Source: an uncultured Acidobacteriota bacterium (GTDB taxonomy: Bacteria > Acidobacteriota > Thermoanaerobaculia > UBA5066). From it: a DNA stretch of 64,000 nucleotides. The stretch's first letter is position 1; each line of letters begins with the position of its first letter. Both the position numbers and the translations under genes were made by a program. The notes below the pieces were generated by a model, which was not told the DNA's origin, ran no database searches, and was given only the letters and a program-made list of their open reading frames with translations. The stretch spans positions 878,199-942,198 of the forward strand of contig CAWGDR010000004.1 of the NCBI GenBank assembly GCA_963821435.1. Reading direction: 5' to 3'. This document shows positions 16,794 through 58,454 of this stretch, piece after piece.

Positions 16794-16868
16794 TCCGCAG
16801 TAGCTCAATGGTAGAGCATTCGGCTGTTAACCGAAGGGTTGTAGGTTCGAGTCCTACCTGCGGAGCCA
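16794..16868 (+). tRNA. tRNA-Asn (anticodon GTT), CCA encoded
   Basis: Cloverleaf: acceptor tccgcag/ctgcgga, D-arm gctc-aatggta-gagc, anticodon arm ttcgg-ctGTTaa-ccgaa, T-arm gtagg-ttcgagt-cctac, discriminator G, CCA. Confidence 0.9.
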
Positions 16869-17150
16869 CTCTTCTCCGCCGCGAACTCGAGACAGGTCCG
16901 CGGTTAACAGATGCCCCGCGAGATCCCTCGCGGGGTTTCGCGTCTAAAGCCCGTGCAGCCAGAAGGGTTTCCGCATGGTTCGTCCTGGCGCTCCGGTTCC
17001 CTGTCGCTGAAACTGAGAGCGGCGCGTCGCGCATGCGGAGGCGCTTTCGAGCCGTTGAGCCGCTCTCTGACGGCCCGAAATGTCGAGAGCGGCTGAGAGC
17101 GGTTAACAGGTCGGGCGGGGCGAGGCCCTGCTGGTTAACAGCCTTGGCAG
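16858..17150 (+). repeat. Composite att-like repeat, copy 0 (master copy at the tRNA junction)
   Basis: tRNA 3' core ctgcggagcca followed by module 1 (...gtccgcggttaacagatgccccgcgagatccctcgcggggtttcgcgtctaaag...) and module 2 (...ctctctgacggcccgaaatgtcgagagcggctgagagcggttaacagg...ctggttaacagcc). Every later copy shares these. Confidence 0.8.
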
Positions 17151-17210
17151 TGCTGAGATGAGGCCGCTGGAGCGACTGACGGTCGCGTACTAAGCGCAAG
17201 GCGCAACACA

Positions 17211-18164
17211 CTAGGCGCCTCCTAGGTGTTCTTTGAAGTGGAAGCCGCGCACTTCGATGAACTTAAGCACGAGCCAGTGGAGGGCATGATTGACTTGAGC
17301 CGAAAGGTCGGTCGACCAGCTGAAGACTGGTGAGGTGCCATCCGCCCCGGTTAGCTCGAAGAAGTACGCCTGAGAAGCGGCGTCCGCGAAGTAGAAACGT
17401 GACTCCCGCATGTTGTTGCCACGCGAGAGCATGGGGACGCCGAACCGAGGCTGTGAAAAAGCCAGCTGATAACCGCGCGCGAGTTCTTTGACGTCGTAGT
17501 GAAAAGAGACCTTGTTTCGAACAAAGAACAACGCTTTGTTTAGGGGATCCGAGGAAAGCTCACCGGCCGCCGCGTCGACGATTGCTCGCCACGCCTTCTT
17601 TCCCGGCTTAGGACAGACGCGTTGAACTTCCTTAAACAGCCGTCCCTTCAGGACAGTGGGATGAGCGCGAATCACTTCAAGAAGCTCGTGCATTATGCCG
17701 ACCAGTGTGCGGAACAAGTGCGCTTCGAGCCCTGCGTATTGACCGCGGTGGGTTGAAGGGATGACTGGGTCCGGCACTGGTATCTCCGAGAGGAGCACCT
17801 GGCTGAGGACAACATCTTTAAGATCGTCGTGAATGACGGCGAGAGCAAGGAAGAATCCGCACTCCTCACGTGTAGCGTCGGCGCTGGGCTCGAAGGCCTC
17901 TTTCGGGAAGGACTCGAGCGATACGAGCGCGTCGGTGTGTTGTGCGTATGTCACAGTTTCGGGTGGACGCCGCCTAACGATATCGCGATCAGCGGCGCGC
18001 GCGGCGAGGCTGCCGCAACGCGTCGCCAGGCCGCCGTCCCTTTTTTGAGCCGGATCCGAAGAGAACTTCAACCCAGGGAGTCTGCAGAAGCGCGGGCGTA
18101 TACCGAAGCCGCAGCCCCGAACGATTTCGGTGAGCGTGAGCGAGCACGTCCCTGCGCGCCACAC
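17211..18164 (-). CDS. Hypothetical protein (start uncertain; internal candidates GTG 17954 / ATG 17693)
   Basis: Long ORF whose 3' two-thirds lie in distinctly lower-GC DNA. No recognisable domain. The maximal start would overlap the divergent neighbour. Confidence 0.4.
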   Translation of the reverse strand: MWRAGTCSLTLTEIVRGCGFGIRPRFCRLPGLKFSSDPAQKRDGGLATRCGSLAARAADRDIVRRRPPETVTYAQHTDALVSLESFPKEAFEPSADATREECGFFLALAVIHDDLKDVVLSQVLLSEIPVPDPVIPSTHRGQYAGLEAHLFRTLVGIMHELLEVIRAHPTVLKGRLFKEVQRVCPKPGKKAWRAIVDAAAGELSSDPLNKALFFVRNKVSFHYDVKELARGYQLAFSQPRFGVPMLSRGNNMRESRFYFADAASQAYFFELTGADGTSPVFSWSTDLSAQVNHALHWLVLKFIEVRGFHFKEHLGGA

Positions 18165-18225
18165 GCGGAGTCACCTGCACGTCCGTCATGCGCCCACTCT
18201 GAATCGGCAGATACACTCCGTCCCA

Positions 18226-56171: not shown

Positions 56172-56190
56172 ATCTTCAACGTTGTGCTGA

Positions 56191-57968
56191 TCATTGAACC
56201 GGGCCCTTGCCATTCCCAAGCGGCCGCAAGCGCTGCATGGCCAGTGCGAGCATTGCCGCTTCCGGAGAACTCGGGCAAAGATTATCTTCGCCTGGCGGTG
56301 CGCCGGTCGCCGTCGGCTGTAGGCAATGCTGCTGCAAATAGCGAGAGACGCTCAGAAAGTCATCCAACGGTAGTCGGGCAGCTTCCAGCAGCGCGGCCGG
56401 GAGTGCGCTCACCGCCGCATCAATCGGTCCTGTACCAGTAGCGCCTTTGCGCCAAAGAATGTACGGAACCTTGCGAAGTGCGGGGTCCTGCCAGGGATTG
56501 CTGACGCCGAACGCGGCGAACACTGCCGGCATCGCCGGCGCATGATCGCCGAGAAATAGCAGCACACCGGGACGCTCAGTGTTTTCAAGGCCTTCGATGA
56601 TGCAGCCTGCCATCGCCGCCGCGTTTCGGGCGTGGTAGAGATAGCGCTGAAGCTGCAGATCGATCTTCTCCGGTAAATGAAGATTCTCGGTATCAGCAGG
56701 TTGCAATGCCCCCGTCTCGCCACGATCGAAGCTCCAGGGGCCGTGATTTTCCATCGTGACCGCGAAAATGAAGCGCGGCTTGTCGCTCTTCTCCAGCAAG
56801 GCCCGGATCTTCCTGACACACCGCCTGATCGCTCACGTATGGGCCATCGAACGTGGCATTTCTGGAAGTCGGTGAGCGACAGAAATGTATCGAATCCGAG
56901 CCGCGGGTAGGCCTGGTGCCGGCGCCAGAAGGTGGCATGAAAGGGATGGATGGCTGTCGTCTCGTAGCCAAGCGCCTTCAGGTGCCAGGGAATCGCGGCT
57001 ATCGGCGCCGTGACCACGGTCAGGTACGGATAGTCCATCTCGGCGCCAAACAAGGTCGCGGGGACGCCGGTCAGGAGTGAAAACTCGGTACGCAAGGTGG
57101 CCCCTCCGTAGGTATCCACCGTCGCCATGCCGTATTGTGCCGTCGCTTTCATCTGATCCCACAACGCATAGGCGGACGGTGAGAATGCCGCATCCAGAAC
57201 GCGGAAGTCGAAGAAGGCTTCGCTCTGAATGACGATGAGATTCGGCAGAGCCCCACGAGCATTCGTTGGAGTGCCTTTGGATGCGGACAGCTGATTGATA
57301 GAGCGCCAGGTCGGCAGCCGGAACGACCTGCGGCACAAAATAGCTCTGAGCGGCGGAATTGATGAGCGTCGCGATCAGGCCATTCTGCTTCACCGACGAC
57401 ATCGGATCGTGATGATCGAATGCCGGTAGAGGGCCCGGTATACGCGCTGCAGCGGGGCGCGGGGCATCAAGAGCGGCGGCTGTATTTGCCACAGCAGGAG
57501 AAGACCTGCCGTGATGGAGACTGCCGTCCAGCGTTTGTCCTTCATGAGTGGTCGTTCGAGCCGAACCGCCCACAACGCGAGAGCCAGTACCCCAAGGCAC
57601 AACGGGATAAAGAACCACTGTTCTCGAAGATACTTTTCGAACAGGACGGGATTTGCCAGCACCTGACCAAATACGATGAAGTCGGAAGCGACGACCGGCT
57701 GGCTTATGATCGAAAACTTGAAGTTGTTACCGAGTGTAATTGCGATGAAAACGACGACCGTCAGCATTGTTGCGGAGAGTGCGCGCCTCACGATCAAGAG
57801 AAATGCGAGGAAGAAGTAGGCGACGGGCAAGCCGTTCAGGAATAGTGCCGTCGGTGTTAGACGCTCAAAAGCCGAGTCCGGCCTGGGTACCGCAATGGCC
57901 GTACAAAGCACAATCGTGCCCAACAGGGCGAAGAGAACAATACTCTTGCGGTGATGAGCGAGAATCAT
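56191..57968 (-). pseudogene. LTA-synthase/phosphoglycerol-transferase family protein (N-terminal TM domain + sulfatase domain), split into at least 4 frames
   Basis: 57390..57968 is a 5-TM N-domain. 56409..57338 holds ...PNLIVIQSEAFFDFR..., the sulfatase-domain start. 56191..56799 holds ...FAVTMENHGPW...LLFLGDHAPA, the C-terminal part. Confidence 0.6.
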
Positions 57969-58284
57969 TACAGATCGACTCTGATCACTGGTTCGTATTG
58001 TGCAAGTGAAACCAGCTTATCCCGTCGCGTAGCGCCTTCCTGGTAAGGCGCGGTGGGAATCGGAGTCCGTTCCGTGCTTTCTCGCACGTGAAGAACATCG
58101 TCGACACGGACGAGGTCTTGACCGGTATCTACATACGCCGGCATCCTGTCGTTCATTGCATCGACGATTATCTCACCCGAGTGCGTCGGCTTGCCGTGGC
58201 GCGGCCGCTCGGCATGCAGAGATCGGAGGATTCCGACGTTCGGCGCCTATGTGGGGTGGCCGTTTCGCCGAGATGACATGCTTC

Positions 58285-58385
58285 CCGGTCTAACGGAGTC
58301 ATTCAGAGGCAGTTCCAGGCTGATATCAATTGAACGTTCTCTGTGCGGCCTGAGAACTAGGTTCGCGCGGCTGACCGACCGCCGG
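58285..58385 (+). repeat. Composite att-like repeat, copy H (P-arm only: module 0 + hairpin + decayed core, then unrelated flank; putative distal end of the array)
   Basis: ggagtcattcagaggcagttccaggctgatatcaattgaacgttctctgtgcggcctgagaactaggttcgcgcggctgaccgaccgccggccc. Confidence 0.65.
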
Positions 58386-58454
58386 CCCTTTTCTTGCAAG
58401 AACTCGTCCCGGAGCGGCCGCCACCTAGGCCGCGACGACCCGAAAGGAGGTTTC

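Follow-up and report, generated by a model that had tools for sequence, protein, structure and literature searches.

A probable accretion array of recombinase-less cassettes at the tRNA-Asn gene of an uncultured Thermoanaerobaculia bacterium, and a large serine recombinase that adjoins the same core in related loci

In the composite islands of the staphylococcal cassette chromosome (SCC, SCCmec), cassettes without a recombinase of their own lie in tandem behind rlmH and are moved in trans by Ccr serine recombinases, and the SCCmec cassettes measure 24-68 kb (PMC11470126). In tycheposon islands, elements and their remnants are separated by partial tRNAs, and a minority of the tycheposons carry a large serine recombinase (LSR) (bioRxiv 10.1101/2020.12.28.424599). 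Here we describe a locus of this kind in a stretch of 64,000 nucleotides from an uncultured Acidobacteriota bacterium of the class Thermoanaerobaculia (contig CAWGDR010000004.1, positions 878,199 to 942,198; hereafter the window, in whose coordinates its features are given). A 41.5-kb array, which extends 3' of a tRNA-Asn gene out to 58.4 kb, is divided into small cassettes by copies of a composite repeat that contains the 3' end of that gene. On balance we read this region as an accretion array in which about nine recombinase-less cassettes were stacked at the tRNA-Asn core, most probably by an LSR. The architecture belongs to a known kind, the accretion islands, which comprise the SCC composites, the tycheposons and the arrays of cis-mobilisable elements (CIMEs) and integrative and conjugative elements (ICEs), and the array is most like the first two. 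A first-pass annotation of the window had stated that no described system was alike; this was too strong, since SCC/SCCmec composite islands and tycheposon islands are close analogues. A literature search found no description of the present arrangement, nor of mobile elements in Thermoanaerobaculia.

SCC/SCCmec and the Enterococcus cassette chromosome resemble the array in that integration of the serine-recombinase type takes place at the 3' end of a conserved housekeeping gene. They share, in addition, the tandem cassettes, the direct attachment-site (att) repeats with the 3' end of the target, the many cassettes without a recombinase and the heterogeneous accessory cargo. The target, however, is rlmH in SCC and tRNA-Asn here, and the cassettes measure 24-68 kb in SCCmec and 1-12 kb here. 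The SCC att repeat is a short integration-site sequence, whereas the junction repeat of the array is about 430 nt long and mobilisation in trans is what we infer for it. Also unlike SCC, the LSR connected with the array has an open reading frame (ORF) that itself crosses the att core; we liken it to Ccr as a serine recombinase and not by orthology. The tycheposons of Prochlorococcus have in common with the array the anchoring at a tRNA gene, successive integrations that push older elements inward, and partial tRNA copies between the elements. They differ in having their own integrase, mostly a tyrosine one, and replication modules, neither of which is present in the window, while the array has a long repeat of left arm, core and right arm in place of just a partial tRNA, and nine consecutive units without a recombinase.

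Islands formed by CIME/ICE accretion, the tandem arrays of SGI1 and the Islander-type islands show the same order of an attL, a number of internal att sites and an attR, and they include cis-mobilisable elements without an integrase. Islands of the CIME/ICE type, in contrast to the array, use tyrosine integrases, have an identity block that restores the tRNA, and usually consist of 2-3 units of tens of kb, whereas the array has 7-11 nt in common with the tRNA and its associated enzyme is an LSR. Integrons and clusters of attC sites lacking integron-integrases (CALIN) are similar to the array in their many small, site-bounded and mostly promoter-less-looking cassettes and in a recombinase that lies outside the cassettes. 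The array is nevertheless not an integron, because IntI and attC are lacking and its genes lie in both orientations. It also has no attI and no folded attC hairpins, it is anchored at a tRNA, the genes upstream of it are core genes, and its junctions of about 430 nt compare with 57-141 bp for attC. Unusual here are the number of consecutive small recombinase-less cassettes and the long composite junction, together with a serine recombinase at a tRNA gene, an ORF that spans the crossover, and the spread across a whole bacterial class.

The tRNA-Asn(GTT) gene (16794-16868, + strand) is the sole tRNA called in the window by ARAGORN and Rfam, and its last 11 nt, CTGCGGAGCCA, are the shared core. 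Downstream of it, MAFFT and nhmmer recover the composite repeat nine more times, on the + strand only. The repeat is composed of a left arm L (about 140 nt), the core [C/G]TG[C/G]GGAGCCA, which corresponds to the tRNA-Asn 3' end (last 11 nt), and a right arm R (100-300 nt). There are six occurrences of the 10-mer TGSGGAGCCA, all at junctions and on the + strand, where 0.37 would be expected (0 of 100 shuffles reach this count), and a 34-nt pattern of the first part of the right arm (R1) occurs seven times against 0 expected. R1 (about 125 nt) contains the conserved CTCTTCTCCCCCGCGAAC, downstream of which come a GC-rich hairpin and TTT; with R2 the arm gains about 170 nt and an inverted repeat CCGCTCTC/GAGAGCGG. 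Of the three copies of the motif GGTTAACAG in R, one is in R1 and two are in R2. The left arm holds two or three copies of CTGAGAACG, and two direct CTGAGAACG-GTT motifs are conserved family-wide, unlike a gagaac-N9-gttctc hairpin that had been described for it at first and is not kept across the family. An inverted repeat GCGGAG-N8-CTCCGC flanks the tRNA end. Ungapped identity of the copies to one reference copy is 61-87%, somewhat lower than the 75-90% estimated in the first-pass annotation. Its central observations, an array at tRNA-Asn with direct copies carrying the tRNA 3' core and without a tyrosine or serine recombinase, were borne out, the first by the searches above and the second by Pfam on the called ORFs and six-frame phmmer over the whole window. 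The only DNA-breaking enzyme in the window is encoded by an IS481-like rve gene (49886-50917, - strand).

The repeats had been interpreted as attachment scars of serial site-specific recombination at the tRNA 3' end, which should show as a sharp identity boundary at the core and as module-level variation between related genomes. The boundaries, the polymorphism and the location of the repeats all support this interpretation. In the related loci L034 and L056 (L numbers denote loci, P numbers proteins), identity is 100% from 200 nt upstream of the L arm through GGAGCCA, and beyond GGAGCCA the two are unrelated, with a segment called X in L034 and R in L056. L022 and L035 show the same pattern, being identical up to GGAGCCA and then split into R variants. 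There are 16 junction pairs with common upstream and different downstream DNA, and 3 pairs with the reverse, and the break falls right after GGAGCCA in 78/78 metagenome junctions. Full identity up to this heptamer followed by complete divergence indicates site-specific exchange. Within the core, GGAGCCA alone is invariant, whereas positions -8 (C/G) and -10 (C/G/A) vary in the L copies and not in the tRNAs; the exchange point therefore lies within or at the edge of these 7 bp. Judging from the alignments, the crossover must be placed inside or at the edge of GGAGCCA.

Could the similarity to the tRNA end be incidental, and the repeats be a dispersed family akin to miniature inverted-repeat transposable elements (MITEs) or bacterial interspersed mosaic elements (BIMEs), or a small RNA family? 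We regard this as very improbable and as largely refuted already. The submodules do occur separately (R2 alone, R1 alone, and a 'pre-L' module alone), a genuine family of repetitive extragenic palindromic (REP)-like elements is interspersed with the junctions, and RNAalifold on 26 R arms finds two sequence-conserved hairpins, as such a family would have. The hairpins, however, show at most 2 double changes in the 26 sequences and thus almost no compensatory changes; 45 L arms have no conserved fold (-2.6 kcal/mol) and no covariation, and Rfam matches only the tRNA in the window. The idea that the repeat also encodes an RNA, which had been put forward earlier, accordingly finds no support. The copies are all 3' of tRNA-Asn and on one strand; the 22 kb of window flanks contain no copy, and neither does the 5' side of four other loci. 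The tRNA or an L arm ends exactly at GGAGCCA in 8/16 GTDB loci with enough upstream sequence (among 18 matches), and the invariant break in the metagenome junctions also speaks against an incidental likeness.

The distribution of the repeat in relatives is equally bound to tRNA-Asn. A genome scan with the R1 pattern, one genome per species, returned 18 GTDB loci, all in Thermoanaerobaculia/Acidobacteriota metagenome-assembled genomes (MAGs); 8 of these consist of tRNA-Asn plus R, and 5 others are internal L-core-R junctions. The L-core pattern was found in 78 metagenome loci. In loci picked independently of the repeat, by their GluQRS gene (L019/L020, L102, L103, L104/L105), R1 stands directly 3' of tRNA-Asn in every case, and further junctions occur on the 3' side and the same strand only. 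Five loci with at least 10 kb on each side have repeats solely 3' of tRNA-Asn and on one strand. Arrays of at least two junctions are present in L007, L009, L019, L026, L038 and L104. A viral origin of the repeats was considered and rejected, both the R1 and the L-core pattern being absent from the viral contigs of IMG/VR.

Individual cassettes can be followed from genome to genome. A 119-aa gene of the window (29544-29903) recurs in seven metagenome loci with 88-93% aa identity, and in L022, L036 and L056 it lies 0.8-1.1 kb downstream of L-core-R junctions. A stretch of vapBC, L, core and R1 is 88% identical at the nucleotide level between the window and L088. In the stretch 45031-46733 of the window, a 210-aa gene precedes vapBC and the junction; in L088 this gene comes after the junction, and in L095 after a different one. 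The gene order of L088 relative to the window is compatible with circular permutation of a cassette or with a tandem copy, which is suggestive only, as the L088 contig is 1.96 kb long. The presence and order of units thus differ between related genomes at the level of modules. In a neighbour-joining tree, the R1 copies of the window are not monophyletic and interleave with tRNA-adjacent R1 of other species, and horizontal cassette exchange fits this better than duplication in situ. Events at the tRNA-Asn core have been serial, cassettes have been exchanged between lineages, and the locus has later decayed.

These comparisons also bear on the explanation that no dedicated mobility exists, and that after one or a few integrations the array grew by homologous recombination, duplication, gene conversion and indels, with the junctions serving as inert scars or homology tracts. 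Arms of 140-300 nt are good RecA substrates, R1 resembles a native 3' flank and terminator of tRNA-Asn in every sampled species including L102, and the array is heavily decayed, with hydrolase and sulfatase genes that are split, R arms that are truncated, a relic of R2 alone, an insertion sequence and REPs. We consider this explanation quite unlikely, given that the boundaries fall exactly after GGAGCCA and are not scattered inside the long homologous arms. Moreover, the R copies of the array are 10-35% diverged and interleave with those of other species, which argues against local duplication and concerted evolution, and the same cassettes stand behind different junctions in different genomes.

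Which enzyme acts on the core? In about 17 junctions of related loci the core is followed by X (GGTTGATGTCTCAGAGCGTCGAGG...) in place of R. This segment belongs to a gene read from the opposite strand, of which it forms the 3' end; the encoded protein has the Pfam domains Resolvase, Recombinase and Zn_ribbon_recom and is an LSR. The gene is intact in L021, where it has the catalytic motif RVSTTMQ, and truncated or a remnant in L080, L099, L023, L041, L063, L082, L092, L006 and L007. Two small ORFs beside the LSR gene of L021 are candidate directionality factors. A diverged X variant, about 50% identical, is present in L034, L054, L068, L094, L042, L083 and L085, and P0148 is an intact relative of it. 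X is about 85-93% conserved beside unrelated L arms and unrelated upstream DNA, so that X is the incoming side. R-type junctions outnumber X-type junctions by about 4:1.

The LSR ORF runs through the core into L, and its last 41 codons are supplied by the L arm. A recombinase ORF that crosses the crossover site changes its C-terminal tail with the integration state. Mx8 intP/intX and the SSV-type archaeal integrases are tyrosine recombinases with the attP inside the integrase gene; they share with the array LSR the ORF that crosses the crossover site, but the present enzyme is a serine recombinase in which only the last ~5-40 codons are affected. The tails read WLPGQDSN... beside the tRNA, WLRTRSAGRT... 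beside L, and WLPGLMS... beside a second left-arm type, L2. The sequence W-L-[PRLQ] is found in the C-terminal tail of 97/113 full-length LSR homologues, and in the DNA contexts checked (L021, L100, L107) Trp-Leu is encoded by TGGCTC, the reverse complement of GAGCCA. Of these homologues, 51 continue with ..DSN..; in L100 (11600-11640) the corresponding GATTCGAAC is the antisense T-loop. In L107, from a Caldatribacteriota MAG, the LSR gene (4001-5674) overlaps tRNA-Asn by 42 nt, its stop is the TAA of the antisense anticodon loop, and GGAGCCA is followed directly by GATTGGTGTCTGAGAGCG. L101 (6190-6220) begins with ...GTTCGAGTCTTACCTGCGGAGCCA joined to GTTTGATCTCTCAGAGCG, that is, with the T-arm and acceptor end of tRNA-Asn fused to X, and by its sequence this junction would be an attL. 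Contexts of more distant LSRs (L100) are prophage-like and have only the core in common.

L2 (...CCACCCGGGGAGCCA; ...GAGCCATCCACCCGGGGAGCCA) was observed in L012 (5700-5772), L018 (780-853) and L004 (~3100-3200). On its opposite strand it encodes the tail WLPGLMSQS.V..D, which is found in the distant LSRs P0121, P0144, P0158, P0188 and P0209, and L2 may be the native P arm and native LSR C-terminus in the excised state. LSRs with a 3' end antisense over tRNA-Asn, an overlap seen directly in the one case checked (L107), appear to form a widespread clade (proteins P0132-P0240) with members in Caldatribacteriota, Poribacteria, Omnitrophica, Dehalococcoidia, Eisenbacteria, Acidobacteriota, the Planctomycetota-Verrucomicrobiota-Chlamydiota (PVC) group and others; the tails of this clade are WLPGQDSNLQPSG, with the TAA in the antisense anticodon loop as their stop.

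The first-pass annotation had suggested looking elsewhere for a cognate integrase of the tyrosine, IntI-like or P4-like type. Queried in six frames with XerD and lambda Int by phmmer and jackhmmer, about 670 kb of sequence (101 loci plus the window) yielded no tyrosine recombinase, the query sequences having been validated with Pfam, and it is the LSR that adjoins the core. Mobilisation in trans, which had also been proposed, is still the best reading for the window. The enzyme is most probably an LSR of a clade specialised on tRNA-Asn, with its own 3' end crossing the crossover site, and such an LSR acting in trans probably made the array of the window. This reading draws its direct support from the anatomy of the array, the sharp boundaries, the polymorphism of modules, the adjacency of LSR and core, and the clade-wide link to tRNA-Asn. 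Other recombinases within R-type cassettes are also LSRs (L015, L066, L087, L044, L013). The cassette of L015 (468-8000), which is R-type and adjacent to tRNA-Asn, encodes a different LSR (27% identical) along with DUF6414 and an Eco57I/MmeI-like restriction-modification enzyme, and so shows that R-type elements with an LSR exist.

A different explanation keeps the accretion and assigns it to a tyrosine integrase that is located elsewhere in the genome or in unsampled elements. The cassettes would then be P4-like remnants or satellites, L-core-R would be attP, GGTTAACAG and GAGAAC would be arm-type sites, and the LSRs would be a second user of the site. The junction of about 430 nt, with several direct and inverted short motifs, is what a complex attP would look like, GCGGAG-N8-CTCCGC around the tRNA end could represent core-type sites, and the excess of R-type over X-type junctions points in the same direction. 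In L082 and L006, furthermore, an X remnant lies between the core and R, which suggests that LSR elements entered pre-existing junctions. We hold this explanation to be unlikely: no tyrosine recombinase is present in the window or in the 18 GTDB, 78 metagenome and anchored loci, Phage_integrase is absent among 25 of 71 families listed in a census of 55 cargo ORFs, and each recombinase seen in or beside the cassettes is an LSR. The variation of the core at -8 and -10 is a further argument, because a crossover further 5' would harm the acceptor stem of the tRNA.

For the LSR reading, the arms on the two sides of the core can be assigned to att sites. All four combinations of tRNA or L with R or X occur and break at one point, which is the signature of attB, attP, attL and attR. 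On this basis tRNA-core-R would be attB-like, L-core-X attP-like, tRNA-core-X an attL and L-core-R an attR, and the window would represent one attB-like site followed by eight attR-like scars, with the LSR absent. A cassette (R, cargo, L and core) could leave as a circle with an L-core-R junction, the LSR being supplied in trans, and the circle could re-enter at any core and bring its R arm on its left. Both the action of this LSR clade on L-core-R sites and the mode of excision and insertion of R-type cassettes are what we infer from this arrangement, the latter by analogy with the ccr-less cassettes of SCC islands (PMC11470126).

The right arm may have a function of its own. R1 and X each carry a terminator-like hairpin, and the two hairpins are different, so whatever stands to the right of the core supplies a terminator; R1 would double as the terminator of the tRNA. 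R1 stands behind tRNA-Asn in all of the sampled species. As this holds even for L102, in which tRNA and R1 are followed by a phosphoenolpyruvate mutase gene with no L arm within 10 kb, R1 may be the tRNA-Asn gene's own 3' flank and terminator (B') rather than a P' arm of the element. The earlier assignment of P and P' arms to the two sides is uncertain for this reason.

The half-sites give some indications. The T-loop motif GTTCGA of the tRNA (-23..-18 relative to the core end) mirrors GCGAAC of R (+13..+18), which gives a 42-bp dyad centred on G-3/C-2 of GGAGCCA, the predicted central dinucleotide. In L the motif GTTCGC lies at -28..-23, 5 bp further out than in the tRNA, and structural work on LSR attP half-sites has reportedly shown the same outward shift of the P-type half-site. 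The X half-site has no clear mirror motif, and a symmetric attP alignment by eye of L against X is near random.

Several observations weigh against the assignment to an LSR. Both the dyad and the 5-bp shift are putative features, taken from consensus sequences. Neither an LSR nor an X remnant was found in the window, and most of the array LSR copies are truncated. The right end of an intact LSR element was not seen, L021 ending after the 79-nt 'pre-L' module, and L099 has no second core within 8.6 kb. No circular contig and no contig with a terminal overlap was found. An LSR att site needs about 50 bp, far less than the 140-300 nt of conserved sequence in the L and R arms. Finally, canonical LSRs recombine only attP with attB, or attL with attR in the presence of a directionality factor; for an intact attB-like site to be followed by a series of attR-like ones, either non-canonical pairs or the loss of all attL and LSR segments would be required.

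Could Thermoanaerobaculia keep a dedicated platform for cassette exchange at tRNA-Asn, based on an LSR, integron-like in function, and served by a trans-acting LSR that accepts non-canonical pairs? We put this forward tentatively, as a possibility that we hold to be doubtful. The long L and R arms would then provide accessory functions, such as directionality control, the tail and terminator of the recombinase, and the terminator of the tRNA. If this were so, accessory genes would be shuffled class-wide, by what would be the first cassette system based on an LSR and a tRNA. More generally, if the accretion is as we describe it, a whole class of uncultured Acidobacteriota, abundant in soil and sediment and with essentially undescribed mobile elements, would store and exchange accessory genes at one hotspot, and the logic of serine-recombinase cassette chromosomes, known from rlmH in staphylococci, would extend to a distant phylum and to a tRNA gene as the target. 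As the att core, GGAGCCA comprises the conserved last bases of tRNA-Asn, namely the end of the acceptor stem, the G73 discriminator and CCA. The LSR clade represents natural integrases with a predictable and universally conserved bacterial target, which would be useful for genome engineering and for automatic mapping of islands. The cargo across the arrays includes encapsulin/ferritin, extracytoplasmic function (ECF) sigma pairs, GGDEF proteins, toxin-antitoxin systems, kinases and restriction-modification.

Upstream of the array, the tRNA-Asn gene is preceded by core genes, namely GluQRS (15706-16629), TyrRS, a PilT-like ATPase and an M28 peptidase, and by a promoter-like site TTGACG-17-TACGAT (16702-16730, + strand), whose upstream motif is also kept at the tRNA-Asn loci of other species. 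The GC content falls from about 72% upstream of the tRNA to 54-70% inside the array. The cassettes hold mixed accessory genes in both orientations, and the junctions J0 to J8 that bound them are all on the + strand. J0 (16858-17158) consists of the tRNA end and R without L; its R arm itself (16869-17158) contains the half-site-like CTCTTCTCCGCCGCGAAC, the terminator-like hairpin CCCCGCGA-N6-TCGCGGGGTTT in R1, and then R2. Cassette 1 (17159-23854) carries two unknown genes, a caspase-like Peptidase_C14 gene and a gene for a Sel1-repeat protein, as well as REPs at 19974 and 20150. Just 5' of the Sel1-repeat region, at 22950-23090, there are three 48-nt tandem coding repeats (…TSRGDTRP..TNTTVP…). 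J1 (23855-24287; L 23855-24000, full R 24001-24287) has a core with a 1-nt deletion, ATG-GGAGCCA. It is followed by a REP (24307-24365) and by cassette 2 (24366-26020), with a YWTD/LDL-receptor class B beta-propeller protein encoded at 24540-25871. J2 (26021-26280) has L at 26021-26167, the core TGCGGAGCCA and a short R of R1 only (26168-26280), and cassette 3 (26281-27193) encodes an outer-membrane beta-barrel protein (26383-27087, - strand). J3 (27194-27625; L 27194-27338, full R 27339-27625) and three REPs (27630-27748) precede cassette 4 (27749-29332), which encodes a GGDEF diguanylate cyclase (27837-28727, - strand). With a GC content of about 54%, markedly below the rest of the array and the genome, this cassette suggests a recent foreign origin.

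Cassette 4 ends at a copy of R2 only (29333-29522), without core or L, which MAFFT and nhmmer both place in the family and which is therefore a junction relic. This is the copy at 29.4 kb for which, as for every internal copy, a left arm and a core had been claimed; only the distal R is there. Cassette 5 (29523-36318) carries genes for the 119-aa protein, which is a membrane protein, BON, DUF5670, a split alpha/beta hydrolase, encapsulin with EncFtn, BrkB, CsbD and Transgly_assoc. The encapsulin (Linocin_M18) and EncFtn pair is complete (31593-32834, - strand) and lies beside the split hydrolase (30758-31596). J4 (36319-36594) has L at 36319-36464, the core TGGGGAGCCA and a short R of R1 only (36465-36594). 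Cassette 6 (36595-38234) encodes a DUF2062-methyltransferase (36822-37991) and a small ORF (38028-38297). The stop codon of this ORF falls within the L arm of J5, as had been noted earlier for a DUF2442 gene; the position stands, and the DUF2442 assignment was not recovered by Pfam at E<=1e-3. J5 (38235-38652; L 38235-38364, full R 38365-38652) is followed by cassette 7 (38653-41756) with DoxX, a secreted protein and an ECF sigma/anti-sigma pair (39845-41388).

J6 (41757-42191; L 41757-41902, full R 41903-42191) has the same core as J4. A REP comes next at 42196, and cassette 8 (42192-46454) contains a B12-binding radical S-adenosylmethionine (SAM) gene on the - strand, the 210-aa unknown gene, a REP and VapBC (45861-46507). 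J7 (46455-46732) has L at 46455-46605, the core CTTCGGAGCCA and a short R of R1 only (46606-46732). Cassette 9 (46733-58248) is composite and decayed; it holds a PD40 propeller, a cupin, the IS481-like rve gene, a GT39/TPR protein, a hydrolase-nitrilase fusion and sulfatase fragments, with REPs at 51235 and 54253. The stop of the GT39/TPR gene (51282-51284) sits within a REP copy, as previously reported. The terminal junction J8 (58249-58410) had been described as a left arm only. The L arm is indeed present (58249-58385), and in addition there are a degenerate core, CCGCCGGCC, and about 22 nt of a degenerate R start, CTTTTCTTGCAAGAACTCG, after which the ribosome-binding site and start of a Ysc84-like gene follow.

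The REP-like palindromic element CCCCCGGCAATTCCCATTGCGCCCCTACAG has 13 copies in the window, all within the array and often just after a junction (19974, 20150, 24307, 26323, 27630-27748 with three copies, 29163 and 34171 on the - strand, 42196, 45767, 51235 and 54253), and the repeat search lists none in the 22 kb of flanks. It is common in related loci and also truncates the LSR gene of L080. The 79-nt 'pre-L' module (…CTGTCTC.C.GGCCGCCTGTCC.GCGAGTTCTAGA.TTCC.GGAGCGGCACCG.CGAGTGGGGTGGC) occurs with or without the remainder of L, in L021 (6482-6560 and 8864-8941), L007 (4018-4091 and 6887-6958), L006, L080, L042 and L051. A third right-arm class, Y (CT.C..ATCCGGCTG.CA...GGCAGCCTTTTT), comes after L-core at three loci, L033, L045 and L019 (at its third L arm), and brings a terminator-like hairpin of its own. 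In L024 an IS481-like element with 72% aa identity to the window copy stands immediately 3' of GGAGCCA, and the post-core sequence of L079, L084 and L089 is the same as that of L024; the element may target the att site, or the recombination partner may have been lost.

Classification of the cargo as a defence island was rejected, as PADLOC gave only weak matches at the level of domains. One such match is that of the alpha/beta-hydrolase-nitrilase fusion (54344-56110, + strand) to the nitrilase domains of DRT/CARF effectors, and another, also domain-level only, is that of the radical SAM gene (42344-43951) to the candidate PDC-M51A. Beyond the last junction the GC content stays at about 64%, and the region past 58.4 kb may therefore belong to a prophage or to another island instead of the core genome. 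An ORF at the edge of the window (62990-63997, - strand) has a weak match to DUF5681.

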